A DNA stretch of 64,000 nt from Elusimicrobiota bacterium (GCA_043827405.1 JBDRPD010000087.1:32001-96000), one strand, 5' to 3'; positions 40,773-60,897 are shown, counted from the stretch's first letter. The notes: generated from the letters alone by a model not told the origin. Numbers and translations are program-made.

Positions 40773-40780
40773 CCGCCGAC

Positions 40781-42304: not shown

Positions 42305-42973
42305 TTAGTAGCAGCCGTCTATGCCGCGAAACGACCTGAGCAGGATGTTCCCCGCCGGGACGGTCCGCACGAGCTCGAGCTCGAGGTGGTACTTGTTGCC
42401 TGCCGGGTCTTCGGTATCGCCCTTGATGACGACCTGATACAGCGTCTCCGCGGGTCCCGGAACGGCCGCCTGCCGACTAACGACCAGGAGCTCGTCGTAG
42501 TAGAGGTTAGGACAATGCTTACGGACCTGGGCATGCACGGCGATCTGCAGCGGCGGCGGGATCACGGAGTCGTCGAAGAACTCGATGATGCCGGTCAGCT
42601 CCGCGCTCTGGGCACTGAAGCCGCCGGAGCCATCCGCGGGAACGATCATCTGCGGGCAGGCGCGCAGGTCGCCGCGCGGGGCGCCGGGCGGCAGCGCGTG
42701 CCGGTATGTGCCGCCGTAGCGGCAGGCGTAGAGGCAGACGCCGTCATCCACGCTCCGCAGGTAGCAGGCCCGGCGAACGAGGTCCCCGTTCATCACCAGC
42801 GGCGCGAACGCCGGGGAGGCGGCCTTCATCTCCGCCACGATCTTTTTGATGCTGAAGTCCTGCTGGTCGAAATCTAAAGCCGGCTGACCGGCCCTGGCGG
42901 CGGTTCCGTTCGCGGCCAGACCGAAGGCCGCGCCGAGAACTACGGTCTTTACTACGTGCGCTACTCTGCTCAT
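42305..42973 (-). CDS. Secreted cysteine-containing hypothetical protein
   Basis: GGAGG RBS, signal peptide MSRVAHVVKTVVLGAAFGLAA; TATAAT at 43032-43037 upstream. Confidence 0.6.
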   Translation of the reverse strand: MSRVAHVVKTVVLGAAFGLAANGTAARAGQPALDFDQQDFSIKKIVAEMKAASPAFAPLVMNGDLVRRACYLRSVDDGVCLYACRYGGTYRHALPPGAPRGDLRACPQMIVPADGSGGFSAQSAELTGIIEFFDDSVIPPPLQIAVHAQVRKHCPNLYYDELLVVSRQAAVPGPAETLYQVVIKGDTEDPAGNKYHLELELVRTVPAGNILLRSFRGIDGCY

Positions 42974-43403
42974 TCCACCTCCGTTCGCTGCGCTCCCCCG
43001 GGCTCTGCGGCTGCCCGAAGGTTGCAGGAACATTATAGGCGCATCACCCCATCAACATCATGAGCCGTTGGGCCCAGAGCGATCTTGACGCCTGCGCGCG
43101 AACGAGCCTCTTCCCCCTACTACAGCAACCCCAGGATAAAAACGTAAACGCTCACCAGGATGAGATGAACGACGGCGAACGGCAGCGCCTTTTTTTCGAC
43201 CAAATCAGTAACCAGCAGGACCTTGGGGAAATGGACTTCCTGATATTCATAGGGCTCCCGCATGGCGCGCTTGAAGACAGATTCGAATACATCTAATTTT
43301 GCCATTATCATATTAATTAACTTTTTTATGGCTTTTTCCAAATCATCCCATTGGCTGTTTTGTTGCAATTTGATTAGCCGACACCTGACTCCTCGCATCG
43401 CTA

Positions 43404-44276
43404 ATGACTACACAGGCATTTATCACCGCAACCTCTTTTATGGTAGGCCTTGGCGCGACGCTGGCGATCGTGCTGGCCCTGGCCAATAAGCGGCTCCATG
43501 TTGAGGAAGACCCGCGCATCGACGAAGTGGAAGAGAAGCTTCCCGGCAATAACTGCGGCGCCTGTGGACTGCCGGGCTGCCGGGCCTTCGCCGAAAAAGC
43601 CGTGGCCGGCGAGGTAAACCCCGCCAAGTGCACGGTGAGCCCACCGGAAGAGATCGATGCCATCGCCGCCCTGCTCGGCGTCGAGGCCGAGGCCGAAGAA
43701 AAACGCGTCGCGCGGCTGGCCTGCGCCGGCGGCGACAACGTCGCACGTCAGCGCGTGCACTACCAGGGCATGGCATCCTGCCAGGCCGCCGCGCTGGCCA
43801 CCGGCGGCGGCAAGGGCTGCGTCTGGGGCTGTCTCGGCTTCGGCGACTGCGGCGACGTCTGCACCTTCGAAGCCATCAAGATGGACGCCAACGGCCTGCC
43901 CATCGTCGACCCCGATAAGTGCACGGCCTGCGGCGACTGCGTCGAAATCTGTCCCAAATCCCTGTTTTCCCTGCAGCCGGTGAGCCGCAAGCTCTGGGTC
44001 GCCTGCATGAACGGGGCCGCGGGCGACGCCGCCGAGAACGAATGCGCCGTCGCCTGCACCGCCTGCGGCCTATGCGCCGCCGACGCGGCCGAAGGCCTTA
44101 TCACAATGCGCAACAACCTCCCTTTTATCGATTACCGCAAAAACGAACAGGCTTCGGACGACGCCATCGAGCGCTGCCCCACGGGCGCGATCGTATGGCT
44201 GGAAAGCCGGACTCGCCGCGTGAAAGGCGCCAGCGCCAAGCGGATCGTCCGCGAGACCCCTCTGCCGGTCGGATAG
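43404..44276 (+). CDS. rnfB: Rnf complex subunit B
   Basis: N-terminal TM, EDPRI..LPGNNCGACGLPGC, multiple ferredoxin CxxCxxC motifs. Confidence 0.93.
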   Translation: MTTQAFITATSFMVGLGATLAIVLALANKRLHVEEDPRIDEVEEKLPGNNCGACGLPGCRAFAEKAVAGEVNPAKCTVSPPEEIDAIAALLGVEAEAEEKRVARLACAGGDNVARQRVHYQGMASCQAAALATGGGKGCVWGCLGFGDCGDVCTFEAIKMDANGLPIVDPDKCTACGDCVEICPKSLFSLQPVSRKLWVACMNGAAGDAAENECAVACTACGLCAADAAEGLITMRNNLPFIDYRKNEQASDDAIERCPTGAIVWLESRTRRVKGASAKRIVRETPLPVG

Positions 44277-44280
44277 AACC

Positions 44281-47200
44281 ATGATGAGCTTTTTTCGCCG
44301 CAAAGAAACCCAGCGTGCCCCCTTCCCGGGAATACGCACGGCGCAGTCGGGCCGCGCCGCGGCCATAGTATGGACCAAAGACGGCGCCCCATCGGTCGCA
44401 CGCTTGGCCGGAATCGCGATGACCGGCGCGCGCGCCAGCGCCTGGATCGACGGCGAGACGCTCCTCGCCGAATTCGGCATGCTGCGCGAAGCGGCCGCGC
44501 GCCACATCCCCTTCGTGCTCCACCTGGAGCGCGGCGCGGCCTCCTCCGGCGGCCTGTCCGATTTCCCCGCTTTCGACGACGCGGGCTGCTTTCTCATGCA
44601 CGCCCGCAGCGCCCAGGAAGCCGCCGACTTCTCGCTTATCGCGCACCGGATCGCGGAGCGCGCCCTCGTTCCCGGCGTGGTAATCCAGGACGCGCCGCTG
44701 ACCACCCAGACCACGGCCTCCATCCTGCGGCCGGAAGACGATCTGGTCAAAGAGTACCTCGGCTCGGCGGACGACCTGGTGGCGGCGCCCACAGGGGCGC
44801 AGAAGATTCTATTCGGCGGCCGCCGGCGGCGGATTCCCGAGCTGTGGTCCGTGGACCGCCCGCTGGTCGCCCCGTCCTCGTACGGCGAGGACTCTCTTGG
44901 TGAGAGCCGGGTCGGCGGGCGCCTGTTCTTCCTCGACCACGTAGCCGGAATCGCCGACGAGGCGATGCGGCGCTTCGAGGAGCTTACCGGCCGCGGCTAC
45001 GACCGCGCGGCGGCGGTGCTCAACGGCGACGCCGAATATACGATCCTCTGCACGGGAGCCGAGACCGGCACCGCGGAGGCCGCCGCCGCCGACTTCAGCC
45101 GCAAGCGCTGCGGCATGGGCCTGGTCAGCCTGTCGATGCTGCGGCCGTTTCCGGCCGAAGACCTGCGGCGCCTGCTGGCGGGACGCAAGGGCATCCTGGT
45201 GTTGGAGAACCGCGACGCCGCCCTGGCCGAGGACCCGCCGCTGACCCGCGAAACGCGCGCGGCGCTCGGCGCCTCCTGCCCGCCGCTCTACACCGCCGTC
45301 CATGGGCTCGGCGGCAGCGCGCTCCGTCCCGGCGAGCTGTACCCGGCGCTGGAGAACATCCTCGCCCAAGGCAGCCGCCGGCGCAGCGTCTACCTGTCGC
45401 TTTCCCAGCCCGCACCGCGGTCGCCCAAGCAGGAGATCGAACAGCAGGCGGTGCTCGACGCCTATCCCGAAGCCGCCGAGCGCATGCCCGCCCCGGCGCC
45501 CGCCGCCGACCTGCTGCCGGCGGGCGCGTTCACGATCCGTTTATTGGGCGCCGCCCCCGCGCTGCGCGACGCCGCCGGCGAGCGCCTCGGCGCGCTGCTC
45601 GCGGAGCTTTTCGAGCACCGCCTGCGGGCGCACGCCGAGCCGGAAAGCGGCTCCTACCGGATCACGGTGGCGCACGAGGAAATCCGCACCGCCGCCGCTC
45701 CCGCCGCGGCCGACATCGCGATCATTCTCGACCCCGCGCTGCTGCGCGGCGGCGCGCTCGACGGCGTGCGCAAAAGCGGCTGCGTCATCCTGCAGAGCGT
45801 CGCCGACAAGCCCGAGCATGTCCGCGACGCCCTCCCCCCGCGAGCCCTGCGCACCGCCCGCGACCGGATGCTGCGGCTGTTCGCCGCCGACATCCGCGCG
45901 CTGTCGAGCATGCAGAATCCCGAAGAACTGGCCTACGTACTCCTGGGCTGCGCGACGGCGGCGATGAACTCCCTCGTTTACGCCGCCCCCCCCGAAGCGC
46001 GCCTAAAAGAGACCTTGCGCCAGCCGCTCGTCAAGCGCGGCCACAACGCGCTTATCGAGCTCGGCGAGATCCCCGGCGCCGCATCCGCCCCGGAAACCGG
46101 GAAGGAGCCGGAGCTTCCGCTGCGCCTAAATACGCACCCCTGCGCCGACGTCCCGGTCGCGGACATCCACCGCTTCTATGCGCAAACCGGACATCGTTAC
46201 GCCGCCGACAGCGGCGGCAACCCCGTGGACCCCTTCCTCGCTTCGGGCCATGCTCCCGCCGCGACCGGCATCCTGCGCAGCCACAGCGCCGAGCGCGACA
46301 GCTACCCGCGTCTCAACCCGGAGAAGTGCAGCGGCTGCGGCGACTGCTGGCTCGCCTGCCCGGACGCCGCTCTGCCGGCGCGCGTCAACGACTTCTCCGA
46401 GATCTGCGAGTGCGCGATCAGCCAGCTGGAAACGGAAGGCCACAAGATTGAGCACCTGCCGACGACCCTGCGCCAGGTCCAAGCCGAGTACGAGGCGCTG
46501 GCAGGAGACCTGCCGGCCGGCCGCTCGTTCCAGGAGCTGCTGCGCCGCGCGATCGAACGAACGGCAACGGCGTCCCGGCTCGCCGGCGGCGCGCGCGCGG
46601 AATTCGAAGCCGAGCTCGCCCTCTTCCAGGACAAGCTCAAGAATTTCCCGGCCGCGATGACCGAGCCTTTTTACGCCCAAGGCGGCGGCGGGCTGCTGTC
46701 GATCGCCGTCGACGCCGATGCCTGCCGCGGCTGCCTGAGCTGCGTCGCGGTATGCCGGGAAAACGCGCTCGTCCCCGCCAAGCAGACGCCGGCGGCGGAC
46801 ATGGAGCTGCGCCGCAGCTTCGCTTTTGCCCAGTCGCTGCCGGGCACCGACACGCGGCACATCCTCAGCGTCGATACGGAAGGGGACGCCAAGGGAGCGG
46901 CGACGCTGCTCCTTGATGCCCGAGCCCACGGCGCGACCGTCGGCGGCGGCGGCGGCGAAGCAGGCGCGGGCGAGCGCACGGCGCTGCGGCTCTTCGCGGC
47001 GGCGACGACCGCCACGCTCCGGCAGCGTCTCAACCGGAAGGCGGCCGTGCTCAAAGGGCTTATCGAAAGACTTGAGAACCACATTCGCCTGGGGCTGTCG
47101 GTCGATATCCAGGACCCCTCCGCCCTCGCCGACATCCTGAAGGACCCGGAAGGCGGGGCCGTCACGCTGGCGGAAATATCCGCGCGGCTCGACCGCGAAA

Positions 47201-48414
47201 ACAAGCCGCTCGATAAAGAGTGGCTCAAGCGGGTCACCGGCGCGCTCGCGGAGCTCAAATCCTGGCGCGCGCGCATCATAACCGGCGGGACCGCGCGCGC
47301 GGATTTCGGCGCCGTGCTCGTCGGCGCGGGACAGCTCGCCCGCTACCCCTACAACCCCTTCGCTTTCCCCTGCGCCCGGGTCGACAAGAACGGCGGCGTC
47401 GACCTCGCGCTCGGGCTGTTCACGGGACATATGCGCAAGATGGCCGCGGGGATCAAGGCCTGCCGCATCGCCGAGCTTGAGCTCGACGGAAAATACAAGC
47501 CGAAGATCCATGACGAGGTATTCCGGCGCTTCGACTGGCGCTCCTTCAGCGATGACGAGCGGCGCCTGTGCCCGCCCGTCGCCGTATTCGGCGCGGCGCG
47601 CGACCTTTTCGGGCCGGCCTTCCAAAGCCTCAGCGCCGCGCTGTCCTCCGGGTGCCCGATTAAAATAATCGCCTTCGCCGCTGCGGGGGACCTGCCGGAG
47701 AACGCGCTGATCGCGGCGGCGCACCCCGAAATCTACGTCCTGCAAAGCGGCATTGCCGATCCCGTGCATCTTATTAACGGCTTCATCGCCGGCATCTCCT
47801 CGCGGCGCCCCGCGCTCTTTCAGGTCTTTGCCGGCGGCGCCGGGGACACCGCCGCCCGCCAGGCGCGCGGGGCGCGGGACGCGCGCGCCCTGCCCTATCT
47901 GCGCTACGATCCCGAGCAGGGAGCGGGCGACGATGAGCGTCTGGATCTCTCCGGCAATCCCGAACTTGAGGCCGACTGGACCACCCGCAAGCTGCACCAC
48001 ATCGACGAAGAAGGCCGTCCGGCCACCCTGGACATACCTTATACGTTCGCCGACTACGCCGCGACCGAGCCGGCCTTCCGCGACGAGTTCGTCGAGGTTC
48101 CGCCGCGCTCCTGGGGCTCCGACATGGTCCCGGTCGCCGACTATCTCGAAATGGACGCCGACGAGCGCGCCGAAGCGGTCGCCTTTGTCTGGGCGGTGGA
48201 CTGGTCCGGCACACTCAAACGTCTCAAGGTCTCCGCCGCCATACTGCGGACCTGCGAGCGCCGGCTGGTTTTCTGGCGGGGACTCAAACGCCGCAAGCGC
48301 CTGGATATCGCGACCGTCGACGAAAACGTCATCGCGGAGAAGGCCCGCGGCGAGATGGTGGAAAAATTGACGCAGTCCCTCATGGAACTGGCGCAGAGCG
48401 GTAGGAGCGGATGA
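44281..48414 (+). CDS. Degenerate pyruvate:ferredoxin oxidoreductase-like protein with two 4Fe-4S motifs
   Basis: PFOR-like segments (QEAADFSLIAHRIAE, CSGCGDCWLACP, CRGCLSCVAVC, YPYNPF, DLSGNP) with catalytic motifs missing. Confidence 0.75.
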   Translation: MMSFFRRKETQRAPFPGIRTAQSGRAAAIVWTKDGAPSVARLAGIAMTGARASAWIDGETLLAEFGMLREAAARHIPFVLHLERGAASSGGLSDFPAFDDAGCFLMHARSAQEAADFSLIAHRIAERALVPGVVIQDAPLTTQTTASILRPEDDLVKEYLGSADDLVAAPTGAQKILFGGRRRRIPELWSVDRPLVAPSSYGEDSLGESRVGGRLFFLDHVAGIADEAMRRFEELTGRGYDRAAAVLNGDAEYTILCTGAETGTAEAAAADFSRKRCGMGLVSLSMLRPFPAEDLRRLLAGRKGILVLENRDAALAEDPPLTRETRAALGASCPPLYTAVHGLGGSALRPGELYPALENILAQGSRRRSVYLSLSQPAPRSPKQEIEQQAVLDAYPEAAERMPAPAPAADLLPAGAFTIRLLGAAPALRDAAGERLGALLAELFEHRLRAHAEPESGSYRITVAHEEIRTAAAPAAADIAIILDPALLRGGALDGVRKSGCVILQSVADKPEHVRDALPPRALRTARDRMLRLFAADIRALSSMQNPEELAYVLLGCATAAMNSLVYAAPPEARLKETLRQPLVKRGHNALIELGEIPGAASAPETGKEPELPLRLNTHPCADVPVADIHRFYAQTGHRYAADSGGNPVDPFLASGHAPAATGILRSHSAERDSYPRLNPEKCSGCGDCWLACPDAALPARVNDFSEICECAISQLETEGHKIEHLPTTLRQVQAEYEALAGDLPAGRSFQELLRRAIERTATASRLAGGARAEFEAELALFQDKLKNFPAAMTEPFYAQGGGGLLSIAVDADACRGCLSCVAVCRENALVPAKQTPAADMELRRSFAFAQSLPGTDTRHILSVDTEGDAKGAATLLLDARAHGATVGGGGGEAGAGERTALRLFAAATTATLRQRLNRKAAVLKGLIERLENHIRLGLSVDIQDPSALADILKDPEGGAVTLAEISARLDRENKPLDKEWLKRVTGALAELKSWRARIITGGTARADFGAVLVGAGQLARYPYNPFAFPCARVDKNGGVDLALGLFTGHMRKMAAGIKACRIAELELDGKYKPKIHDEVFRRFDWRSFSDDERRLCPPVAVFGAARDLFGPAFQSLSAALSSGCPIKIIAFAAAGDLPENALIAAAHPEIYVLQSGIADPVHLINGFIAGISSRRPALFQVFAGGAGDTAARQARGARDARALPYLRYDPEQGAGDDERLDLSGNPELEADWTTRKLHHIDEEGRPATLDIPYTFADYAATEPAFRDEFVEVPPRSWGSDMVPVADYLEMDADERAEAVAFVWAVDWSGTLKRLKVSAAILRTCERRLVFWRGLKRRKRLDIATVDENVIAEKARGEMVEKLTQSLMELAQSGRSG

Positions 48415-49757
48415 GCCTGCCGACCTTTCCGCACGGCATCCATCCCCCGGAGGCCAAGGAGATTTCAAACTCCAAGCCCATCCGGCGCTTCCCCTTCGCC
48501 CCCTACCTGGTCATTTTCCTGTCCCAGCATACGGGCAAGCCCGCCCGCGCCCTGGTCCGCGCCGGGCAGGAGGTGCGCCGCGGCGACAAAATCGCGGAGG
48601 CCGACGGCTTCGTCTCCGTCCCGCATTACGCGCCCGCGACCGGCAGGATCAAGGCCGTAACCCAGGCGATGAATTTCGACGGCAAAATGGCGGATGCCAT
48701 CATCCTCATCCCCCATCCCGGCTCGCCGCAGGAGCTCGCGCCGAGCAAGCAGATCGACGTCACGCGGCTCACGCCAGCGCAGATCGTCGCCGGCATCCAG
48801 AACATGGGCATGGTGGGCCTCGGCGGGGCGGCTTTTCCGACGCATGTAAAGCTCACCCCCCCCAAGGGCCGCAAGATCGACACCCTAATCATCAACGGCT
48901 GCGAATGCGAGCCCTACCTGACCAGCGACCACCGCGTCATGCTTGAGCGCTCGGCTGAGATTATCCTCGGCGCGCGGCTGCTGGCGAAAGCCCTGATGGT
49001 CAAGCGCACCATTATCGCCGTCGAGTCGAACAAGCCGGACGCCATTGAGGTCCTCCGGCGCGCCGCGGCCGGAGCGGAGAAGATCGAGGTCGCCGCGCTG
49101 GAAACCAAGTACCCGCAGGGCGCGGAGAAGATGCTGACCAAGGCGCTGCTGGACCGCGAAATTCCCTCCGGCGGACTGCCGGCCGACATCGGGACCATGG
49201 TCTCCAACGTGGCCACCGCCGCCGAGATCGGCGAGCTCCTGCCCGCCGGCCGCGGCCTCTTTGAGCGGGTCGTAACGATCAGCGGCGAGGGGATAGAGCG
49301 GCCCGGCAACTACATCATTCCCATCGGCACGCCGCTCGACTTCATCCTCGACACCGTCGGCTTCCGGGGCCGGGCCAAACAGGTCCTCTTCGGCGGGCCG
49401 ATGATGGGCAAGGCCGTGGTGTTCCTGGAGACGCCGACGATCAAGGGGCTGACCGGCATCGTGGTCCTCGCCAAAGAGGAGCTTGCCGAGAAGAAACAGA
49501 TTTACTCCTGCATCCGCTGCGCGGCCTGCGTCAACGCCTGCCCCATGCACCTCAATCCCACGCGCCTGGGCCTCCTGGCGCGGGTACACGCCTTTGACAA
49601 GATGAAGGATGAGTTCCATCTCCTCGACTGCTTCGAATGCGGCTGCTGCGCCTATGTCTGCCCATCCAATATCCCGCTGGTGCAGCACTTCCGGCTCGCC
49701 AAGGGCATCCTGCGCAAGCGCCAACTGGCGGCGGCCGCGAACGGAGCCGCCAAATGA
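48411..49757 (+). CDS. rnfC: Rnf complex subunit C
   Basis: GIHP, GLGGAAFPTHVK, ECEPYLTSD, YPQGAEK, GGPMMG, CIRCAAC and CFECGCC motifs. Confidence 0.96.
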   Translation: MSLPTFPHGIHPPEAKEISNSKPIRRFPFAPYLVIFLSQHTGKPARALVRAGQEVRRGDKIAEADGFVSVPHYAPATGRIKAVTQAMNFDGKMADAIILIPHPGSPQELAPSKQIDVTRLTPAQIVAGIQNMGMVGLGGAAFPTHVKLTPPKGRKIDTLIINGCECEPYLTSDHRVMLERSAEIILGARLLAKALMVKRTIIAVESNKPDAIEVLRRAAAGAEKIEVAALETKYPQGAEKMLTKALLDREIPSGGLPADIGTMVSNVATAAEIGELLPAGRGLFERVVTISGEGIERPGNYIIPIGTPLDFILDTVGFRGRAKQVLFGGPMMGKAVVFLETPTIKGLTGIVVLAKEELAEKKQIYSCIRCAACVNACPMHLNPTRLGLLARVHAFDKMKDEFHLLDCFECGCCAYVCPSNIPLVQHFRLAKGILRKRQLAAAANGAAK

Positions 49758-50779
49758 CCATGCCGGCGAAGTATCTCGACATGGAGCTGCGCATCTCGCC
49801 GCACGGCAAGCGCCCCGTCGACACCGTCGCCATTATGCGCACCGTGGTGCTGGCCCTGCTCCCGGTCGCCGCCGCCGCCGTATACATCTTCGGCGCCGGC
49901 GCGCTGCTGCTGCTGCTGAGCACCGTCGCCTCCTGCCTCGCGGCGGAAGCCGCCGCCTGCCGGGTGAGCGGCCGCGCCTCTTCGCTGCCGGACTACTCCG
50001 CAGTCATCACCGGCCTGCTCCTCGGCCTGACTTTGCCGCCCGGTTTTCCGTTATGGATGGCGGCGGTCGGCGGCTTTGTCTCCATCGGGCTGGGCAAAAC
50101 CCTGTTCGGCGGCCTAGGCTTCAATATCTTTAATCCCGCGCTGGTCGGCCGCGCCTTCCTGCAGGCGGCCTTTCCGGTCGCCATCACCAGCTGGTCGCCG
50201 GTCCTGTCCGCGGCCCGCTTCCGGAGCCTGCCGCCGGGGACGCTGACAGTGCCGTTCACGCACCCGACCGCCGACGCCTTCTCCGGCGCCACCCCTCTGG
50301 CGGCGATGAAGTTCGACCATGCGGCGGCGCCGCTGGGCGACCTGCTCTTCGGCGGCGTGCCGGGCTCAATGGGCGAGACCTGCGCCGCGGTTATCCTGCT
50401 CTGCGGCCTCTACCTGGCGCTGCGCCGGATGCTGGACTGGCGCATCCCGGCCGGCATCTTCACCGCGGTCATCGTGACCAGCGCGATGGTGCGCCTGATC
50501 GTCCCCTCCGCGCCGACGCCCGGATTCATGCTGCTCTCGGGAGGCCTCATGCTGGGCGCGGTATTTATGGCGACGGACATGGTCACCTCCCCCGTCACCT
50601 CCCGCGGCGTATGGCTCTACGCCGGCCTCATCGGCATGCTGGTCGTCATCATCCGCGTCTGGGGCGGCCTGCCGGAGGGCGTGATGTACGCCATCCTTAT
50701 CGGCAACGCCGTGACGCCGGGACTCAACCGCATCACCCAGCCCAGAGTTTACGGGACCTCGTGCAGGAGCGTGAAGTGA
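49754..50779 (+). CDS. rnfD: Rnf complex subunit D
   Basis: SPH, FGGLGFNIFNPAL, SGATPL (FMN-Thr), GSMGET and FMATD motifs. Confidence 0.95.
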   Translation: MTMPAKYLDMELRISPHGKRPVDTVAIMRTVVLALLPVAAAAVYIFGAGALLLLLSTVASCLAAEAAACRVSGRASSLPDYSAVITGLLLGLTLPPGFPLWMAAVGGFVSIGLGKTLFGGLGFNIFNPALVGRAFLQAAFPVAITSWSPVLSAARFRSLPPGTLTVPFTHPTADAFSGATPLAAMKFDHAAAPLGDLLFGGVPGSMGETCAAVILLCGLYLALRRMLDWRIPAGIFTAVIVTSAMVRLIVPSAPTPGFMLLSGGLMLGAVFMATDMVTSPVTSRGVWLYAGLIGMLVVIIRVWGGLPEGVMYAILIGNAVTPGLNRITQPRVYGTSCRSVK

Positions 50780-51432
50780 AAGGCAAGAGCGCGGAGATGA
50801 TCGGCGTCCTCACGGGAGTCGCGACGATCTGCGGCGTCCTCATCGTCGGCGCCTACCAGACCACTTTACCGCTGATCAACGCCAATAAGGCGGCCTACCT
50901 CAAAGCGGCCGTCTTCAAGGTCATCCCGGGCGCGGTGAAGACCGCCGCCTTCACTGTGGACGCCGACGGCAGCTTGACCCCGGCGGGCGAAGGGCAGCCG
51001 GCCGCGGCCCATGCGGTTTATGACGAGAACGGCGGCCTCCTCGGCATCGCCCTGGAGGCCAGCGGCCAGGGCTTCCAGGAAATCATCCGGGTGCTCTACG
51101 GCTATTCGCCGGCGCAGCGCGCGGTCGTCGGCTTCATGGTGCTGGAAAGCAAAGAGACGCCGGGGCTCGGCGACAAGATCGAGAAAGACCCCGCCTTCCT
51201 GGCGAATTTCAACGCCCTCGACGTCGCCCTGGACGCCGGCGGCGACCAGCTCGCGCACCCGATCACGGTGGTAAAGCCCGGCAAGAAGACCTCGGCCTGG
51301 GAGATCGATGCGATCTCCGGGGCGACGATCTCCTCTAAAGCCATCGGCCGCCTGCTCGATGAAAGCACCCGCGTGAAGATTCCCCTGGTGCACCGGAACC
51401 TGCAGCGGCTTAAGGAAGGCGCCGGCGGATGA
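50776..51432 (+). CDS. rnfG: Rnf complex subunit G
   Basis: N-terminal TM, ETPGLGDKI and DAISGATISS (FMN-Thr); GTGA overlap. Confidence 0.93.
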   Translation: MKGKSAEMIGVLTGVATICGVLIVGAYQTTLPLINANKAAYLKAAVFKVIPGAVKTAAFTVDADGSLTPAGEGQPAAAHAVYDENGGLLGIALEASGQGFQEIIRVLYGYSPAQRAVVGFMVLESKETPGLGDKIEKDPAFLANFNALDVALDAGGDQLAHPITVVKPGKKTSAWEIDAISGATISSKAIGRLLDESTRVKIPLVHRNLQRLKEGAGG

Positions 51433-52037
51433 GCGAAAAGAACGCGGACGTATTCCTTAAGAAGCTGTGGGAGGAAAACCCCGTCTTCGTGCATCTCCTC
51501 GGCATGTGCCCGACGCTGGCGGTGTCCAACTCAGTGATCAACGCGCTGGCGATGGGGCTGGCCACGCTGTTCGTGCTCGTAATGTCGAGCATGCTGATCT
51601 CCATGCTGCGCCGGCTGATCCCCAAGCAGGTGCGCATCGCCACCTTCATCATGATCATCGCCACCTTTGTCACCCTGGCCGAGTACGTCATCCAGGCGGT
51701 CAGCCTCGAGATCCACAAGAGCCTCGGCGCCTTCATCTCGCTGATCGTCGTCAACTGCATCATTCTGGGGCGCGCCGAGTCCTTCGCCTACAAAAAACCG
51801 GTCATCCCGTCGATCCTCGACGCCCTCGGCACCGGCATCGGCTTCACTCTGGCCATCCTGGCCATGGGCTCGATCCGCGAAATCCTCGGCTCGGGCTCTT
51901 TCGCCGGCGTCCCGCTGTTCGGGCCGTCGTTTGAGCCCTGGGTCGTCATGATCCTGCCGGGCGGCGGCTTCTTCGTCCTCGGCCTGCTGCTGCTGGCCGT
52001 CAATAAAATCAACCTGCTCCGGGGGAAGAAGCAATGA
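51429..52037 (+). CDS. rnfE: Rnf complex subunit E
   Basis: ENPV, GMCPTLAV, IVVNCIILGRAE and PGGGFF motifs. Confidence 0.95.
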   Translation: MSEKNADVFLKKLWEENPVFVHLLGMCPTLAVSNSVINALAMGLATLFVLVMSSMLISMLRRLIPKQVRIATFIMIIATFVTLAEYVIQAVSLEIHKSLGAFISLIVVNCIILGRAESFAYKKPVIPSILDALGTGIGFTLAILAMGSIREILGSGSFAGVPLFGPSFEPWVVMILPGGGFFVLGLLLLAVNKINLLRGKKQ

Positions 52038-52621
52038 ACAGCGATCCCCTGTGGCTGATCTTCGTCAACGCCTGCTTCGTCAATAACTTCGTGCTGGCCT
52101 ACTTCCTCGGCATCTGCCCCTTCCTCGGCGTATCCGGGAAGCTCGAAACAGCGAGCCGCATGGGCATCGCCGTCACCTTCGTGATGCTGGTCAGCTCGAC
52201 CTGCGCCTTCGGCATCCACACCTTCCTGGTGCGCATCGACGCGCAGTATCTGCAGCTGATCGCCTATATCGCCGTGATCGCCTCCTCGGTGCAGCTGGTC
52301 GAAATGTTCATCAAGAAGTTCAGCCCGGCGCTGTTCCGGGCGCTCGGAATTTTCCTGCCGCTGATCACGACCAACTGCGCTATCCTCGGCCTGGCGCTCT
52401 TCCAGACCAGCCGCGCCTACAGTCTGCCGCAGTCGCTGGCCTTCGCGGTCGGCGCCGGCGCCGGCTTCACCCTCGCCCTGGTGATCATGGCGGGGATACG
52501 CGAGGAGCTCGAGCTCGCGGACGTCCCCGACGTGGTCCGCGGCGCCGCGATCACGCTGATGATCGCGGGCGTGCTGTCTTTGGCGTTCATGGGCTTCGCC
52601 GGACTCGGAGGCGGAGCATGA
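52034..52621 (+). CDS. rnfA: Rnf complex subunit A
   Basis: NNFVL, GICPFLG, LPLITTNCAILG and AFMGF motifs. Confidence 0.95.
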   Translation: MNSDPLWLIFVNACFVNNFVLAYFLGICPFLGVSGKLETASRMGIAVTFVMLVSSTCAFGIHTFLVRIDAQYLQLIAYIAVIASSVQLVEMFIKKFSPALFRALGIFLPLITTNCAILGLALFQTSRAYSLPQSLAFAVGAGAGFTLALVIMAGIREELELADVPDVVRGAAITLMIAGVLSLAFMGFAGLGGGA

Positions 52622-52773
52622 TCCGCGACCTCCTCATCGCTATCGGCGGCATCGCGGTCTTATCGATTTTTTGGGTCGTCGTCGAACACCTGCGCTGTTC
52701 CGTCATCGGCCGCCCCGCATCCTCATGCGCGGGCTGCCCGGACACGGACTGCGGGAAGCAACCAATCCCATGA
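52618..52773 (+). CDS. 51-aa membrane-anchored Cys-rich protein, absent from the ORF track
   Basis: MIRDLLIAIGGIAVLSIFWVVVEHLRCSVIGRPASSCAGCPDTDCGKQPIP; ATGA overlap with the rnfA stop, fills the gap to the next gene. Confidence 0.7.
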   Translation: MIRDLLIAIGGIAVLSIFWVVVEHLRCSVIGRPASSCAGCPDTDCGKQPIP

Positions 52774-52786
52774 AAGGACGGGCGCA

Positions 52787-54703
52787 ATGAAAAAACCACG
52801 CAAGATCAGGAAAGAAGAACACATCGTTGAGATTGTCAGCGACGCCGGCGAGGGCGCGCAAAAGGCCGCCGTGGCTTTCGCCCAGACCTGCGCCCGGATG
52901 GGCAACGGCCTGTGGACGGTCGAGATCATCCCCTCGGAGATCCAGCCGCCGCCGCATACCACCGGCAGCGCCAGCGGCAACCGCATCCGCCTGTCCGAAA
53001 AGCCGCTGGTAACCAATGCCGGCGACAAGGCGAATTTGGTCCTGGCCTTCAACGAGATGGCTTTCCTATCACGCATCGAAGCCAACTCGGTGGCCGACGA
53101 CGTCATCCTGGTCATCGACAGCATGTGGGCCGAGCACGACGACCCGGAAATCCGCAAGAACTACGCCCAGATCACCGAGGACGTGCGCCAGAAGGGCGGC
53201 ACGGTCCTGGAGATCCCGTTCGAGAAAGAGACCCTAAAGATCGTGGAAGACCCGCGGCGCGGCAAGAACATGTTCGCCTACGGCTTCCTCTGCGCCCTCT
53301 ACTGCCGCGACAAGGAAGTGATGCTCGAGGTGGTAAAGACGACCTTCGGCAAAAAATCGCAAAAAGTGATCGACACCAACGTCGCCCTGGCCGACAAGGG
53401 CTACCAGTACGGAGAGGAGCACCTGGAGTACCAGTTCGAGATCCTCGCCAAGCCCTCCGACAAGCAAATGGTGGCGATGAACGGCAACCTCGCGATCGCG
53501 CTGGGCGCGATCGCCGCCGGCTACGAGATGTGCTCGATGTATCCGATCACGCCGGCGACCTCGGCCTCGCACTTCCTGTCCGACATCTTCGAGGACCTGG
53601 GCGGCTTCGTGCACCAGGCCGAAGACGAGATCGCCGCCATCGGCGTGGCCATCGGCGCCTCTTATGCCGGCAAGGCGGCCATCACCATCACCTCGGGCCC
53701 GGGCATGGCGCTCAAAACCGAGTTCCAGGGCCTGGCCGTCATGACCGAAACGCCGCTGGTCATCGTCGACGTACAGCGCGGCGGACCGAGCACCGGCCTG
53801 CCGACAAAGATCGAGCAGGGCGATCTCTTGTCCTCGATCTTCGGCACCCCGGGAGACGCCCCCAAGGTGGTCTTGGCCGCGAGCAACATCGAGGACTGCT
53901 TCTACATCCTGGCAACGGCGCGCAAGATCTCCGAAGAGTTTCGGACTCTGGTTATCGTCCTGACCGACGCCAACCTGGCCACCGGCCAGCAGATCTTCCA
54001 GCGGCCGGAGCTCTCCGAGGCGACCCTGCCGCCGCCGATGGACCTCAACCCCGTCCCCAAGGGGACTTTGCCTTTCGACTGGGACGAAAAGACCGGCCTG
54101 TCGCGGCGGCTGATCCCGGGCCAGGCCAACGGCATGTCGGTGATCACCACGCTCAACCACGCAAAGGACGGCAAGGCCTGCTACGACTACGAGAGCAACC
54201 AGCACGGCCACCGCATGCGCAGCCGCAAGCTGGCCACCCTGCAGAAGACGCTCAAGACCCCGCCGATCTACGGACCGGACGAGGGCGACCTGCTGATCGT
54301 CGGCTGGGGCAGCACGCGCGGCGCGATCGAGGAGGCGGTGGACCGGGCGCAGGCGGAAGGCTACCACGTGTCTTCGATGAACATCCAGTTCCTCAACCCG
54401 CTGCCGTCGGGGCTCAAGCAGGCCTTCTCGCGCTTCGATAAGGTGATGACGATCGAGCTCAACTACAGCGACGACGCGGACGATCCGGAGATCACCGCGG
54501 AAAACCGCCGCTACAGCCAGCTCTGCCTGCTGCTGCGCGCGAATACGCTCATGGATATCGACACCTGGTCCCGCGTACCGGGCCGGCCCTTCATGCCCTT
54601 TGAGCTGACGGAAGTGATTCGACATGAGCTGGGCGAACCGAGGAAGCCCGGTGAGGAACGCAAGAAGAAACCCAAGCAGACCGCGGTACGAGGTGCGAAA
54701 TGA
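52787..54703 (+). CDS. korA: 2-oxoacid:ferredoxin oxidoreductase alpha subunit (gamma-alpha fusion, KorA-like)
   Basis: YPITP, AEDEIAA, TSGPG, QRGGPSTGLPT and GWGST motifs. Confidence 0.9.
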   Translation: MKKPRKIRKEEHIVEIVSDAGEGAQKAAVAFAQTCARMGNGLWTVEIIPSEIQPPPHTTGSASGNRIRLSEKPLVTNAGDKANLVLAFNEMAFLSRIEANSVADDVILVIDSMWAEHDDPEIRKNYAQITEDVRQKGGTVLEIPFEKETLKIVEDPRRGKNMFAYGFLCALYCRDKEVMLEVVKTTFGKKSQKVIDTNVALADKGYQYGEEHLEYQFEILAKPSDKQMVAMNGNLAIALGAIAAGYEMCSMYPITPATSASHFLSDIFEDLGGFVHQAEDEIAAIGVAIGASYAGKAAITITSGPGMALKTEFQGLAVMTETPLVIVDVQRGGPSTGLPTKIEQGDLLSSIFGTPGDAPKVVLAASNIEDCFYILATARKISEEFRTLVIVLTDANLATGQQIFQRPELSEATLPPPMDLNPVPKGTLPFDWDEKTGLSRRLIPGQANGMSVITTLNHAKDGKACYDYESNQHGHRMRSRKLATLQKTLKTPPIYGPDEGDLLIVGWGSTRGAIEEAVDRAQAEGYHVSSMNIQFLNPLPSGLKQAFSRFDKVMTIELNYSDDADDPEITAENRRYSQLCLLLRANTLMDIDTWSRVPGRPFMPFELTEVIRHELGEPRKPGEERKKKPKQTAVRGAK

Positions 54704-55668
54704 CCCCCCTGAATATCGAAGAACTGGTAGAGAAAGACTGCGCCACCAAGAACTACAAGCTCGAGGACTACGAGGCGCCTTATCCGGCACGCTGGTGCAA
54801 AGGCTGCGGCGACTTCGGCGTTCTGACGGCCATCCAGAAAGTGCTGCGCGACGCCAATATGGCTCCGGAAAACGTGGTCTGCTGCTCGGGCATCGGCTGC
54901 TCCAGCCGCCTGCCCCACTACCTGAAGACCTACGGCTTCCACGGCATCCACGGCCGGGCGCTGACGCTGTCGACCGGCGTATCGCTGGCCCGGCCGGACC
55001 TGAAAGTCATCACCATCATGGGCGACGGCGACTGCTTCTCGATCGGCGGCAACCACTGGCTGCACGCGATCCGCTACAACGTGGATCTCACGGTCCTGGT
55101 GCTCGACAACGAGGTCTACGCCCTGACCAAGAAGCAGGCATCGCCCACGACGCCCCAAGGCGGGATAACCAATACGACGCCGCGCGGCTCGTATCTCAAG
55201 CCGCTCAATCCCATCAGCACCATGATGGGAATCGCCAATGTCTCATTTTTGGCGCAGACGGCGACGTGGTTTCCGACGCACCTGGAAGCGACCATCCAGA
55301 AGGCCTGGAAGCACAAAGGCCTGTCCTTCGTGCGCGTGCTGCAGCGCTGCCCGGCGTACATGCCAGCCGCCTTCGGCAACGGCGGCCTGCAGTATCCGGC
55401 CGCCTTCCTCAAAAACGACAACGGCATACCGTTTGACGCCGACGACGCGGCCGCCGCCAAGGTGCAGGAGCATGACCAGCACGACCTCAACATGGCCCTG
55501 CGCGTCGCGGCCGTCACCGATCCGGCGCCCATGGGACTCATCTACTGGAACCCCGATCTGCCGACGTACAACGAAACGCGGCTGTCGCGCGTGCGCAAGC
55601 ATGACCGCAAGACGCTGCTGGCCCGGCTCGACGGGGAGCTGGATAAATACGCCGTAAAACGCAAGTAG
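54700..55668 (+). CDS. korB: 2-oxoacid:ferredoxin oxidoreductase beta subunit (KorB-like)
   Basis: WCKGCGD, GIGC, HGIHGR, GDGD..DN TPP motif and QRCP. Confidence 0.9.
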   Translation: MTPLNIEELVEKDCATKNYKLEDYEAPYPARWCKGCGDFGVLTAIQKVLRDANMAPENVVCCSGIGCSSRLPHYLKTYGFHGIHGRALTLSTGVSLARPDLKVITIMGDGDCFSIGGNHWLHAIRYNVDLTVLVLDNEVYALTKKQASPTTPQGGITNTTPRGSYLKPLNPISTMMGIANVSFLAQTATWFPTHLEATIQKAWKHKGLSFVRVLQRCPAYMPAAFGNGGLQYPAAFLKNDNGIPFDADDAAAAKVQEHDQHDLNMALRVAAVTDPAPMGLIYWNPDLPTYNETRLSRVRKHDRKTLLARLDGELDKYAVKRK

Positions 55669-55675
55669 GCCCAAA

Positions 55676-57490
55676 ATGAAACAGCAGGAAGTCACCCAAC
55701 AAATCGAAACGTGCTCAGAGCACGCGCAGGCGGACCTGATGGAACGCCTGCATACGGCGCACCGCGAGATCGACGACCTTCTGACGCTCGAAGAGCATCA
55801 CCGCACCGGACATCAGAGCGAGAGGCTGCAGACCTCGATGCGCGGCTTCGGCGACGGAGTCCTCGACACCCGGGCCCTCTCCGCGGTCCTCGACCAAGGC
55901 GACGAGAGCCGGCGCATGAACAAGGACCGCCACCAGCGCATCCTCAAGGTGCGCGACGAGCTCAAGGCCCTCATCGAGAGCTACGAGAAGAGTCCGCCCA
56001 AGCCGGCGACCATGCCGCTGGGCGCCGATGCCGACGCGATCCTCAAGCGCGCAGAGGACCATCTCAACAAGATGGCCAAGGCCTTCCGCCTGATACGGAT
56101 CGTGCGCCTCGAGGTCCGCGCCCAGTACCAGAAGGAGCTCCACGATCCGTTCTTCAAGCGCTTCAACTGGGAGCATCTGAGCAACGACGAAGTCGCCCTC
56201 TGCCCGCCTTTCCTCGTGACGGACGAGCCGGCGGGAGAGCTCGACATCGCCAAGGTGCTGCACCTCATCTCCAGCGGCCGCCCGGTAAAGCTGCTGCTGC
56301 TGCGCACCGAACTGCGCAAGCGGCCGGGGACCACCGGCCGCTCGTCGGCGCTGCAATGCGTAATGGATCTGGAAATGCTGCCGGTCGCCATGCGCGGCGT
56401 CTACTTCATCCAGACCACGACCGCCCGCCAGGACCTCGACGCCCTGCTGGAGGCGGGGCTTCGCTCACCCCGGCCGGCGCTGTTCTCGCTGTTCGGCGCC
56501 GACGCCGCGCACGAGAACGGCTTTCGCACCCGCGCCGAGCGGGCGCTGTCCTCAAGGGCCCATCCGCATATCGTATACGACCCCGACCGCTCGCCCCAGT
56601 TCGTCGCCTGCTTTGACCTCTCGGGCAACCCGGCCATGGACCGCAACTGGACCAACGCTCAGCTCGAACACCGCACGGACAAGGGCGACGCCGAGACCCT
56701 GGAACGGGAGTTCACCTTCGCCGACTTCGCGGTGCAGGAAGCCGCGTTTTCGGGCGAGTTCTCGGTGCTGCCCGCCGACCTGGAAGGCCGGGAGCCCGTC
56801 ACGCTGGCGGAATACATCTCCCTGCCCGCCGACCAGCGCAGCGGCAAGCTGCCCTTCGTCTATTCGCTCAACGAAAAGCAGCGCCTCACCAAGCTCGTGC
56901 CTTCGCGCGCCATGATCGTACAGACCGCCGAGCGGCTCAAGCTGTGGCGGGCGCTGCGCGAAATGGCGGGCGTCGAAAACCCCTTCGTCAAGGAAGCCGA
57001 GAAGCGGGTCAAGACCCGCCTCACCGACGAGAAGGAAGCCTCGCTAAAGGAGCTGCAGGGCCGCATGGAGACGCAGATCGCGGCCCGGCAGAAGGAGGCG
57101 GTCACGACGGCGATGCGCAACCTCGCCCGCCAGTTGACCGGCCTGGAGGCGCTCGCGCCGGCGCCGGAGACGGCGCCCGCGGCGTCGGCGACCACTGAGG
57201 CCGCGCCGGCCGCCGCCGCGCCGGCCAAGCCGACGGGAACCAGCGACCTGCCGTGGATCCAAAGCAAGAAGTGCACGACCTGCGACGAATGCACCAATAT
57301 CAATAAAAAGATATTCGCCTATAACGAGAACAAGCAGGCCATCATCGCCGACCCCAAGGGCGGACCTTTCCGGGATATCGTCAAGGCGGCCGAGAAGTGC
57401 TCGGCGCGCATCATCCATCCCGGCAGGCCGCAGGACCCGAGCGAGAAGAACCTCGATAAGTGGGTTAAGAAGGCCGAAGCGTTTCAGTAA
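55676..57490 (+). CDS. PFOR C-terminal-like protein with a C-terminal ferredoxin domain
   Basis: CPPFLV, RPALFSLF, DLSGNP and FTFADFA segments shared with the 44281 protein; CTTCDEC...AAEKC after an Ala/Pro linker. Confidence 0.75.
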   Translation: MKQQEVTQQIETCSEHAQADLMERLHTAHREIDDLLTLEEHHRTGHQSERLQTSMRGFGDGVLDTRALSAVLDQGDESRRMNKDRHQRILKVRDELKALIESYEKSPPKPATMPLGADADAILKRAEDHLNKMAKAFRLIRIVRLEVRAQYQKELHDPFFKRFNWEHLSNDEVALCPPFLVTDEPAGELDIAKVLHLISSGRPVKLLLLRTELRKRPGTTGRSSALQCVMDLEMLPVAMRGVYFIQTTTARQDLDALLEAGLRSPRPALFSLFGADAAHENGFRTRAERALSSRAHPHIVYDPDRSPQFVACFDLSGNPAMDRNWTNAQLEHRTDKGDAETLEREFTFADFAVQEAAFSGEFSVLPADLEGREPVTLAEYISLPADQRSGKLPFVYSLNEKQRLTKLVPSRAMIVQTAERLKLWRALREMAGVENPFVKEAEKRVKTRLTDEKEASLKELQGRMETQIAARQKEAVTTAMRNLARQLTGLEALAPAPETAPAASATTEAAPAAAAPAKPTGTSDLPWIQSKKCTTCDECTNINKKIFAYNENKQAIIADPKGGPFRDIVKAAEKCSARIIHPGRPQDPSEKNLDKWVKKAEAFQ

Positions 57491-57898
57491 TCAGTCGGCG
57501 GGGCCGACGTCGGTGAGGTACGCCTTTTGGATCGCGTCCATTTCGCGCGCGCCATGGCGTTTTAGCGCGGTGAAAAATTCCTGAAGCTCGGCGCAGACAT
57601 CGTCGCCGCCCTTCGCGCAGAGCTCCGTCAGGCGGCCGATCAGCTCGTCGTGTTCTTTATATATGCGGGCGAAGGTGCTGCGCATCTCCGGCGATTCCTG
57701 GGAGAACTCCTCAAACTTCTCGATCGACTCCTCGTACGCGAAGTGCTTGCGCATCAGCTCGCGAAAAACGGCCAGCTCACGGCGGAACTCATCGGACGGC
57801 CCACCGCCGGCCAGCGCCTTTAGGCGCGAGACGACCGTATCGATCTCCGCATGCTGCCGGTCCAGCTCCTGCCTTATCTTTTCGCTTTTCTCGTCCAT
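57491..57898 (-). CDS. Hemerythrin/HHE-domain protein
   Basis: QH, HFAYEE, EH and HGARE motifs in a helical 135-aa protein. Confidence 0.8.
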   Translation of the reverse strand: MDEKSEKIRQELDRQHAEIDTVVSRLKALAGGGPSDEFRRELAVFRELMRKHFAYEESIEKFEEFSQESPEMRSTFARIYKEHDELIGRLTELCAKGGDDVCAELQEFFTALKRHGAREMDAIQKAYLTDVGPAD

Positions 57899-57922: not shown

Positions 57923-59293
57923 TTAGTACCAGACCAGCCTGAGCCCCAATTGTCCGGCCAGCGCGCGGATACCCCCCTCGGCGGGCGTGCCGCGGTAGGC
58001 GCGGTGCGCGGCCATGCGCTCGACGTCGTCTTTGAGCCGCACTTCGTCAAAAATCTGGACCTCGGGGTTGGTGCGCACGTCCGGGCGCGGCCCGACCCGC
58101 CCGCCGGCCACCCAGCGGAAGAGCTCGAGCAGATTCTCCCGGGGCATGTCGTTAAGGGCATAGGCGGCATTATCGAAGGTCCCCACGGGGACGGTGCCCA
58201 TATTATCGAGCGTGTCGCGCGCGGTCAGAGTCGCGCGCCGCTTGAGGCCGTCTTTTAACACGAAGTAGACGCCTTTCTCACCTTTGCTGTAGTCGGAGTA
58301 GCGCGGCGCGCCGCCGGCGGGATCTTCGGTGACGTTTACGGAAGCGTACTTCGGCCGCTTCTCGGGGGCGGCGCCCGCGAGGCCTTCGAACATTTTATCT
58401 TCCGCCACCGCCCGCTGCTTGGTCGCGATTCCCTGGGTCACGCCGGTCTGCGCGTAGTTCTTGTAGACGCCGTCGGCCATGAAGCCGTCTATGATGGAAC
58501 GGCCGTCGGGCAGCTTCATATTGGGGTCGAAATTGATGGTGAGCTCGGCGTTTTGTACGTGGCTAATAAAATTCTCCATCGCGGCGTCGGCTTCTGCTTT
58601 TGGGAAGTAGGCGTCGATTAGGGCTTCGAGGCTTAGGTCTTGGAGCCGGTTGCTCTCCTTGATCAATTCTTTTTTCCGCTCTTCAGGGACGGTCTTAATT
58701 TGTTCCTGTACGTTCTTGAGCTGGGCGTTGCGGCGCTCGACGGCGATGCTGCGGCGCAAAAATTCTCCGATCTCATTTTGCGCGGCCTGTTCTTTGGTTG
58801 CGGCTTTTTTGTTCGCGGCGGCTACGGGTGCGGGGAGAGTCTTGTTTGCGGAGTCAAAGAGGATGCTGCTTTCATGCGCGGCTTTTATGCCGCTGAGGTC
58901 GCTGAACTTGGCGGACTCTTCGGCGGTTTTTTCCGCTTGGCCGTGGACGCCGGGGTTTTGTTCGGCGTTCGACTGCTCTCTCTTGCCGAAGGTTTTGACG
59001 GGATTTATTGTTTTGGCCGGGATTATGGTGCTGTTGGGTAGTGTTTTGATTTGGGCGGTATTGGTTTGCGGCCCGTTGATCGCCGTATTTACGGTGGGGA
59101 GTACGCCGGGGGCGCCGATGGCCATGTTTAGCGGCTGGATATTGGTTATTCCGCTATTTGTGCTAGTAGCGGCTCCGGCGGCGCCGGTTGGGGTCGCTGC
59201 TTTGCCCGCGGCGGTCCCGAGGCGAATGGCGGCCCCGGCCGGCGGGGCAAAGCAGAGCGCGGCCGTTAGGATGACGCGGCCTATATATTCCAT
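57923..59293 (-). CDS. Secreted protein with a C-terminal DUF3626-like domain
   Basis: Signal peptide and low-complexity linker; TINFDP, YKNYAQTG, RPKYASVN, GGAPRY, RATLT and EVQI..VRL..DVE motif order. Confidence 0.6.
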   Translation of the reverse strand: MEYIGRVILTAALCFAPPAGAAIRLGTAAGKAATPTGAAGAATSTNSGITNIQPLNMAIGAPGVLPTVNTAINGPQTNTAQIKTLPNSTIIPAKTINPVKTFGKREQSNAEQNPGVHGQAEKTAEESAKFSDLSGIKAAHESSILFDSANKTLPAPVAAANKKAATKEQAAQNEIGEFLRRSIAVERRNAQLKNVQEQIKTVPEERKKELIKESNRLQDLSLEALIDAYFPKAEADAAMENFISHVQNAELTINFDPNMKLPDGRSIIDGFMADGVYKNYAQTGVTQGIATKQRAVAEDKMFEGLAGAAPEKRPKYASVNVTEDPAGGAPRYSDYSKGEKGVYFVLKDGLKRRATLTARDTLDNMGTVPVGTFDNAAYALNDMPRENLLELFRWVAGGRVGPRPDVRTNPEVQIFDEVRLKDDVERMAAHRAYRGTPAEGGIRALAGQLGLRLVWY

Positions 59294-59408
59294 ATACCTA
59301 ATAGTGCACGGAAAACGCTGCTATTACAATGGTCATGGGGGTACGGGCGGGGCGGGTCGATGGGCCCAATTGCCATTTTCGACCTGGGCGTTAGGCGCGA
59401 ATTAGCCC

Positions 59409-59439
59409 TTGCGAAAGTATACCCTACAGTGTATACTTT
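59409..59439 (+). promoter_or_regulatory. Toxin-antitoxin promoter with overlapping palindromic operator
   Basis: TTGCGA-N17-TATACT; inverted repeat AAAGTATAC (59414-59422) / GTATACTTT (59431-59439). Confidence 0.8.
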
Positions 59440-59454
59440 GATTAGGAGGCGACG

Positions 59455-59727
59455 ATGACCAAAACCATCACACTAAAGGCCCTCCGCCCCGGGCTGCCTA
59501 AAGTAGCAGACGCCATCGAATCCAAGCTGGATCGGTATATCGTTACACGGCGAGGCGAGCCGGTAATGATGCTCATTAGCCCGGAGGATTACGAAGGCCT
59601 TCTCGAGACCATTGAGATACTTTCCGACAAAGCCTCAGTTAAGCGTATTCGAAAATCTCAGAAAGAGGCTCGCACGGGCAAGACGATATCTCTCGAAGCG
59701 CTTCGGCGAAAACTAGAGGGTGTATAG
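59455..59727 (+). CDS. Phd/YefM-family antitoxin
   Basis: IVTRRGEPVMMLISPEDYEGLLETIEIL; AGGAGG RBS. Confidence 0.93.
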   Translation: MTKTITLKALRPGLPKVADAIESKLDRYIVTRRGEPVMMLISPEDYEGLLETIEILSDKASVKRIRKSQKEARTGKTISLEALRRKLEGV

Positions 59728-59980: not shown

Positions 59981-60059
59981 AAACAACTGCCGCCGACCGC
60001 GCTTCTAAGGCAGGCTGCGGGGCGGCGGCGGCAGAGCGTAAGAAAACCGACTTTAGGAA

Positions 60060-60884: not shown

Positions 60885-60897
60885 TGACCCAATCGCG

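Follow-up and report, generated by a model that had tools for sequence, protein, structure and literature searches.

A candidate privately wired, ion-pumping 2-oxoglutarate:NAD+ oxidoreductase encoded by an Rnf operon with an intact 2-oxoacid oxidoreductase and two catalytically dead PFOR paralogues

The Rnf complexes of C. tetanomorphum (7ZC6, PMC9588780) and A. woodii (9ERI, PMC11889175) have six subunits, shared cofactor motifs and a long RnfB, and the accessible portions of both accounts report no subunit derived from pyruvate:ferredoxin oxidoreductase (PFOR). Here we analyse an operon at positions 43404-57490 of a 64,000-nt stretch of DNA from Elusimicrobiota bacterium (GCA_043827405.1 JBDRPD010000087.1:32001-96000; hereafter the window), which has the same six subunits, cofactor motifs and long RnfB but carries two PFOR-derived proteins, P1 and P2, together with a 2-oxoacid oxidoreductase, KorAB. 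According to those same portions, both described RnfB proteins retain the two clusters of the last ferredoxin domain (FdIII), whereas the RnfB of the window lacks one of them and is acidic there.

The gene order has already been published for two symbionts, where it was interpreted as ordinary PFOR plus Rnf. The rnf2 operon of the Solemya velum symbiont has rnfBCDGEA with one or more PFOR genes between rnfB and rnfC (PMC4287430), a likeness in the position of the insert that is compared here by gene names only; the PFOR was taken for an active pyruvate donor, and the accessible part of that account is silent on korAB, on dead paralogues, on a tethered ferredoxin and on RnfB changes. In the Escarpia laminata symbiont, 'rTCA cycle cluster 2' (rTCA, reductive tricarboxylic acid; Table S1 of PMC6315080) has por, rnfB, por-like, korB and korA adjacent and all transcribed, which fits, again by gene names only, the common order that we found among relatives of the window. 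The part of that study open to us sees PFOR and 2-oxoglutarate:ferredoxin oxidoreductase (OGOR) as dependent on ferredoxin recycling by Rnf, lists a ferredoxin gene nearby and describes, in Text S1, rnf clusters co-transcribed with por genes; it offers no analysis of por-like. A literature search, with most subscription journals outside its coverage, returned nothing on dead P1 paralogues, on the rule of one ferredoxin arm per system described below or on the RnfB change.

On balance we favour the reading that the operon encodes a privately wired, ion-pumping 2-oxoglutarate:NAD+ oxidoreductase; for such a machine we only infer physical contact between its parts, a stable supercomplex and independence from soluble ferredoxin. 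The eleven co-oriented, close-packed genes recognized in the initial annotation are all on the + strand and have the sizes given there. Of the ten junctions, seven overlap by 4 nt and three leave gaps of 4, 13 and 7 nt (counted with rnfD starting at ATG 49754 and rnfG at GTG 50776), GC content at third codon positions (GC3) is high in all eleven genes (0.77-0.91), and the operon is flanked by a divergent open reading frame (ORF) upstream and by a convergent hemerythrin gene that abuts the final stop. Gene identities were assigned by Pfam and NCBIfam scans:

43404..44276, + strand: rnfB, long type, 290 aa with 20 Cys, without the four ligands of one [4Fe-4S] cluster in the last ferredoxin domain and acidic there
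44281..48414, + strand: P1, a catalytically dead PFOR of 1377 aa; Cys 683-693 and 815-825 kept, no C-terminal ferredoxin
48411..49757, + strand: rnfC, two [4Fe-4S] motifs
49754..50779, + strand: rnfD, flavinylation motif present
50776..51432, + strand: rnfG, GTG start, flavinylation motif present
51429..52037, + strand: rnfE, both membrane Fe-S cysteines
52034..52621, + strand: rnfA, both membrane Fe-S cysteines
52618..52773, + strand: 51-aa protein, one hydrophobic helix and a Cys-rich tail
52787..54703, + strand: korA, intact alpha subunit of a two-subunit 2-oxoacid:ferredoxin oxidoreductase (OFOR), domains III-I-II, best solved match 6N2N
54700..55668, + strand: korB, intact beta subunit with proximal-cluster cysteines, thiamine pyrophosphate (TPP) motif and an Arg after the second cysteine motif
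55676..57490, + strand: P2, 604 aa; cofactor-less PFOR domain VI, long helix, disordered linker 492-517 and single-cluster ferredoxin

The Rnf order had initially been set against two usual ones. The arrangement is unusual through the inserted P1, but rnfBCDGEA itself is a third order known in Bacteroidota and Chlorobi (accessible part of PMC4014512), so that the oddity is P1 and not the order of the Rnf genes.

Both PFOR-like proteins had been proposed to be dead, and this holds: P1 and P2 lack the catalytic sites and selectively keep Fe-S sites. Catalysis by PFOR involves the substrate loop, a catalytic Glu, an Arg, an Asn, the TPP/Mg motif and the proximal-cluster cysteines; in an alignment with relatives and the intact nifJ-type PFOR of the same genome, P1 has 0/8 of these motifs and no CoA loop, and retains both domain-V [4Fe-4S] cysteine motifs. 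Its reading frame is open over 4.1 kb with a GC3 of 0.86, and a model of residues 604-1377 (predicted local distance difference test score, pLDDT, 87; predicted template-modelling score, pTM, 0.88) matches PFOR structures in domain architecture and fold. Domain order and fold are common to D. africanus 1B0P, M. thermoacetica 6CIN, an active sister family of 1650-1700 aa, P1 and the core of P2, whereas P1 and P2 are without the TPP, substrate and proximal-cluster sites and have added helical insertions; the active sister family bears an extra C-terminal ferredoxin. Across the P1 family the eight domain-V cysteines are complete in 17/17 dead and 30/30 active proteins, as against 0/17 and 30/30 for the four proximal cysteines. 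Dead P1 proteins occupy 35-61% of domains I-III but 95-100% of positions 751-1200 of the active reference, that is, domain V and most of domain VI. Three P1 proteins with a C-terminal ferredoxin (P0007, P0009, P0011) have lost only some catalytic motifs and may be intermediates. A sister family of intact, 1550-1580-aa PFORs without that ferredoxin (L129, L130, L131, L146, L147) had no rnf genes in the stretches examined.

P2 is ~30% identical to the C-terminal part of P1. Its model (pLDDT 93) comprises a domain-VI core, a helix of ~50 residues, the disordered linker and a ferredoxin, hereafter the arm, whose cysteines are residues 533, 536, 539 and 575 and whose TM score to 1FXR is 0.85 (target length); this tail scores 24.3 bits on Pfam Fer4_13 against a cut-off of 24.5. 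In the family alignment each of the four cysteines is present in 120-121 of 133 rows, the remainder being gaps. The P2 of the window has neither TPP motif nor proximal cluster, and across the same 133 rows a GDG-like string occurs in 8 and each of the other two motifs in one. Counting P1 relatives, P2 matches 817 protein clusters at E up to 1e-30.

KorAB, by comparison, is intact by sequence, with catalytic and cofactor motifs in both subunits. KorA lies above the TIGR03710 cut-off and KorB scores 237.7 against 261.9 on TIGR02177. Over the related loci described below (cluster loci), five of six KorB motifs are found in 70/70 and one in 69/70, and the KorA motifs in 81, 81, 80 and 68 of 81. 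The best solved match of KorA is M. marinus OGOR 6N2N (E 1e-79), from which the present arrangement differs in that korB is followed by P2 with its tethered ferredoxin. OGOR positions alpha Thr227, Arg303 and Ile46 and beta Arg63 are matched in KorAB; we take these to be 2-oxoglutarate binding residues, and 2-oxoglutarate is the probable substrate.

All six Rnf subunits (A, B, C, D, E, G) are encoded. RnfB, C, D, E and A exceed their TIGRFAM cut-offs, and RnfG scores 79.9 against the TIGR01947 cut-off of 102 (E 2.5e-22) with its flavin mononucleotide motif present. The cofactor motifs are complete for the two RnfC clusters, the flavinylated Thr of D and G, the membrane Fe-S cysteines of A and E and the N-terminal RnfB cluster. 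The exception is FdIII: aligned with 9ERI and 7ZC6 (E 5e-57 and 5e-54), RnfB of the window has lost four cysteines, one ligand set of the two expected in the long RnfB type. The missing cluster appears to be the outer one, through which ferredoxin electrons enter. The same loss was found in 108/108 cluster loci and in 0/14 comparable controls, which were drawn from one phylum sample after two fusions of ~700 aa were set aside; seven of the controls fit the canonical pattern and seven, judged by eye, retain the cysteines at longer spacing. In the two fusions (L167, L168), encoded in rnfCDGEAB loci, another C-terminal domain replaces FdIII. Charge differs as well: residues 201-230 carry a net charge of -7 to +1 in cluster RnfB and of +2 to +6 in controls, while in A. 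woodii the basic C-terminal region of RnfB is described as a hook for ferredoxin (accessible part of PMC11889175). The arm of the window's P2 has a net charge of +5 and P1-borne arms a mean of +1.4 (n=74), compared with -10 for the free ferredoxin of the genome. This free, acidic ferredoxin (104 aa) is encoded at C32:19415-19729 and emerged from a cysteine-pattern screen of ORFs <150 aa, which found none on the operon's contig, in agreement with the initial remark that the locus has no standalone ferredoxin gene.

Relatives were collected by a pattern scan of GTDB genomes that gave at least 529, of which the best 80 were kept, a set biased to active P1 in Gemmatimonadota, and from two 251-genome samples of the phyla of Geobacter-named and Planctomycetota-named genomes, with matches in 38 and 33 genomes. 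A stricter first-pass filter was used for these samples, whose weakest matches came from a different PFOR family; 60 stretches were taken for comparison, 57 from both phylum samples and three from genome G011. Since P1 or P2 served to find these loci, adjacency counts are partly built in. With that proviso, P1 lies between rnfB and rnfC in 83/84 loci with all three genes and P2 between korB and rnfB in 64/64. The linkage is conserved, and the common order is korA-korB-P2-rnfB-P1-rnfCDGEA, of which the window and G011 carry a circular permutation. An RnfB search of 121 genomes, which does not share that built-in bias, placed cluster loci in all of the top 11 of 32 places, and 16 of the remaining 21, when inspected, showed no PFOR-like neighbour within the stretches taken. 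Most relatives have an active PFOR as P1. Two named strains with this form are Gemmatirosa kalamazoonensis, where korAB-P2 is present, and Persicobacter psychrovividus, where none is nearby: on its 1.07-Mb replicon (L091:12518-24544) an active, armed P1 is found with rnfCDGEA and with rnfB last, and no korAB lies within the 33 kb examined. A P1-only search gave 0 relatives among 73 stretches and an alignment search with dead-type P1 only 2 loci among 497 metagenome stretches; P2 occurs in only 2/401 genomes of the window's phylum, making the operon patchy. The two forms coexist in one genome (G643; L093 and L126), where one cluster has a dead P1 together with korAB-P2 and a second, separate Rnf cluster has an active P1. 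The two plasmid records are unannotated across the locus.

Gene content resolves into two modules, rnfB-P1-rnfCDGEA and korAB-P2, each of which also occurs on its own. The earlier view of the two relics stands as regards the retention of Fe-S sites and needs amending in that they are not equivalent, P1 going with Rnf and P2 with KorAB. Among the stand-alone korAB-P2 loci, no shared partner emerged from 14 neighbour ORFs scanned.

Across both modules there is one arm per system. A 3'-complete P1 occurs together with a whole P2 at 74 loci, five of which were left out because their P1 is frameshifted: an active P1 with C-terminal ferredoxin accompanies an arm-less P2 in 58, a dead arm-less P1 accompanies an armed P2 in 11, with the window as a twelfth, and none has arms on both. 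In three genomes the arm-less korAB-P2 and the armed, active P1-Rnf lie on separate contigs, and in the one genome with an arm-less P2 but no P1 match, P2 is broken. Where P1 is dead (11 full-length cases in the examined loci), korAB-P2 adjoins it in 11/11. The remodelled entry domain of RnfB and the single tethered ferredoxin suggest a path that bypasses free ferredoxin. Arm-less P1 and P2 (L009-L141) share a short amphipathic C-terminal helix, and a similar helix precedes the linker in three armed P1 where the pattern matched; it is a candidate P1-P2 pairing element.

In a tree of RnfCDGEA, the window and G011 stand beside ten active loci and apart from eight other dead loci, with no long branches, and a single grouping of dead P1 was rejected on a quick tree (approximately unbiased test, p-AU 6.6e-9). 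P1 catalysis was thus probably lost at least twice with the arm on P2 each time, two events being suggestive and yielding no statistic. In its body, the window's P2 most resembles the 500-aa, arm-less P2 of the active group in this tree (35-39% identity over ~480 residues), and its arm has mean identities of 54% and 60% to P1-borne arms vs 48% to other P2-borne arms, values that fit transfer from a P1 tail, though they do not name the donor.

We propose that KorAB, which is intact by sequence, would oxidise a 2-oxoacid, most likely 2-oxoglutarate. P2, a modelled fold, would be its non-catalytic partner and would take electrons from KorB with the arm, on a flexible linker of ~30 residues. P1 would be a dedicated partner of Rnf whose two clusters receive electrons from the arm and replace the entry cluster of RnfB; electrons of the arm would pass either to these clusters or straight to RnfB, and the two halves would be held together by P1 and P2. 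From RnfB, electrons would take the established route through RnfAE, G, D and C to NAD+, with pumping of Na+ or H+. The ancestral state would be an active P1 PFOR bearing the arm, which is found on P2 once P1 catalysis is lost. A bolder version, which we offer tentatively and expect may well fail, is that these operons form a distinct Rnf class refusing soluble ferredoxin, with P1 as an obligate seventh subunit in place of the entry cluster, a P1-P2 pair recruiting KorAB and one swinging ferredoxin arm that could be likened to the lipoyl arm of 2-oxoacid dehydrogenases. The whole would be a membrane-bound, energy-conserving substitute for 2-oxoglutarate dehydrogenase (and also for pyruvate dehydrogenase if P1 is active), whose dead-P1 form would have arisen at least two times.

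As to the direction of flow, the genome (98% complete) encodes one Rnf, Nqr-like genes, the intact nifJ-type PFOR, a four-subunit OFOR-like set, citrate synthase and a haem-copper oxidase, and a search of it gave no SucA match and no flavodoxin match. Because citrate synthase and the oxidase are present and a SucA match is missing, oxidation of 2-oxoglutarate with ion pumping is the likelier direction, KorAB then replacing 2-oxoglutarate dehydrogenase. An ATP-citrate lyase search also gave no match, but its controls were equally silent, making it uninformative.

Several observations weigh against a private wire. Each module is found alone, so neither needs the other: of genomes with an armed korAB-P2, 5/5 tested, all incomplete metagenome assemblies, yielded neither a cluster-type RnfB nor a P1, and of genomes with Rnf and an active P1, 4/4 tested were without P2. 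Besides the operon, the genome encodes a second korAB and one clear free ferredoxin. The P2-borne arms found in other lineages are on average acidic (mean -4.2, n=18), and locus L089 encodes its ferredoxin as a stand-alone acidic protein of 107 aa. RnfB cluster number varies naturally, from three to eight (accessible part of PMC11889175), so that one loss need not imply a private partner, RnfB length is likewise highly variable in nature, and since the RnfB changes are probably a single ancestral event, the 108 loci are not 108 independent tests. Of the 58 active loci in the arm count, 46 stem from the search biased to active P1 in Gemmatimonadota. Finally, the P1 tree is model-dependent, with two dead origins under a mixture model (quick tree) and one under LG+G4, a conflict that led us to rely on the RnfCDGEA tree. 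Much of this would suit two co-regulated but separate machines, in which KorAB-P2 reduces the arm of its own P2 and meets Rnf only by collision or through soluble ferredoxin and P1 is an Rnf accessory unlinked to KorAB; the lone modules, their separation onto different contigs in three genomes, and the free ferredoxins of the genome and L089 all speak for it. We regard it as unlikely, as it leaves unexplained why exactly one of P1 and P2 bears an arm, why an intact arm-less P2 is found only in genomes with an armed P1 and why dead P1 keeps its clusters. The order at L089 (5192-14840) is korAB-P2-P1 (active, no arm)-free 107-aa ferredoxin-rnfB-another PFOR-like gene.

The same wiring could also run in reverse, the ion gradient and NADH driving reductive carboxylation of succinyl-CoA through Rnf. 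The closest solved KorA belongs to the carboxylating M. marinus OGOR, the tubeworm-symbiont cluster was interpreted as aiding rTCA carboxylases (accessible part of PMC6315080), and oxidation could fall to the second korAB; against this, with citrate synthase and a terminal oxidase encoded and no match to SucA, oxidation is required, ATP-citrate lyase was not matched either (with the silent controls noted above), and dimeric KorAB is likely also oxidative according to the accessible supplement of PMC6315080, so that we consider reverse flow quite unlikely. P1 might instead cap this Rnf type structurally or help to assemble it, with clusters that are structural or sensory and no wire, a reading that strikes us as highly unlikely. 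Loss of the proximal cluster does leave one end of the domain-V pair without a known partner, and P1 accompanies the remodelled RnfB whether active or dead, but the eight ligands invariant in all 17 dead proteins amid eroding domains are what a working relay predicts. Hardly credible is the view that P1 and P2 are decaying duplicates, now functionless: dead P1 has long branches and variable N-terminal deletions, yet its 4.1-kb frame is open with high GC3, the folds are confident, cysteines are retained selectively and P2 has the many matching protein clusters noted above.

If the privately wired reading is true, many genomes annotated with PFOR beside Rnf have no such enzyme there, and reconstructions of pyruvate synthesis or of the rTCA cycle that count dead P1 as PFOR are wrong in those cases. 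Rnf would be hard-wired to a step of the tricarboxylic acid cycle, saving as an ion gradient what the ordinary dehydrogenase dissipates, roughly 0.2 V for 2-oxoglutarate dehydrogenase. With a tethered, non-acidic carrier, low-potential electrons could be kept from other users of ferredoxin and perhaps also from oxygen. The signatures seen in the sequences, namely the missing RnfB cluster, the charge swap and one arm per system, are amenable to mutational tests.

An ORF like that of the 51-aa protein comes after rnfA in most cluster loci. The protein may resemble the Nqr maturation factor NqrM; scanned as a single sequence at E up to 10, it gave no meaningful Pfam match and none to NqrM/DUF539. 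Its hit to a small enterotoxin motif (E 0.029, below the cut-off) was taken as a chance result of cysteine content. Scans for promoters (1 site vs 1.6 expected) and terminators (18 vs 12.0 +/- 3.2 expected) were uninformative. Upstream of the operon, a polyphosphate cluster at 36079-42259 comprises ppk1, a sixA-like phosphatase, a CHAD protein, an ankyrin protein and a two-domain PPK2, and is followed by the ORF divergent from rnfB (242 aa, 42305-43033, - strand), which matches nothing in Pfam at E up to 10. Downstream, the stop of the hemerythrin gene (57491-57898, - strand) meets that of P2 with zero gap, and GC content then falls to 0.56-0.58 over 58001-62000, compared with ~0.65 around; this low-GC segment encodes a DUF3626 protein and a Phd/YefM antitoxin, alongside two ORFs that no Pfam family matches.

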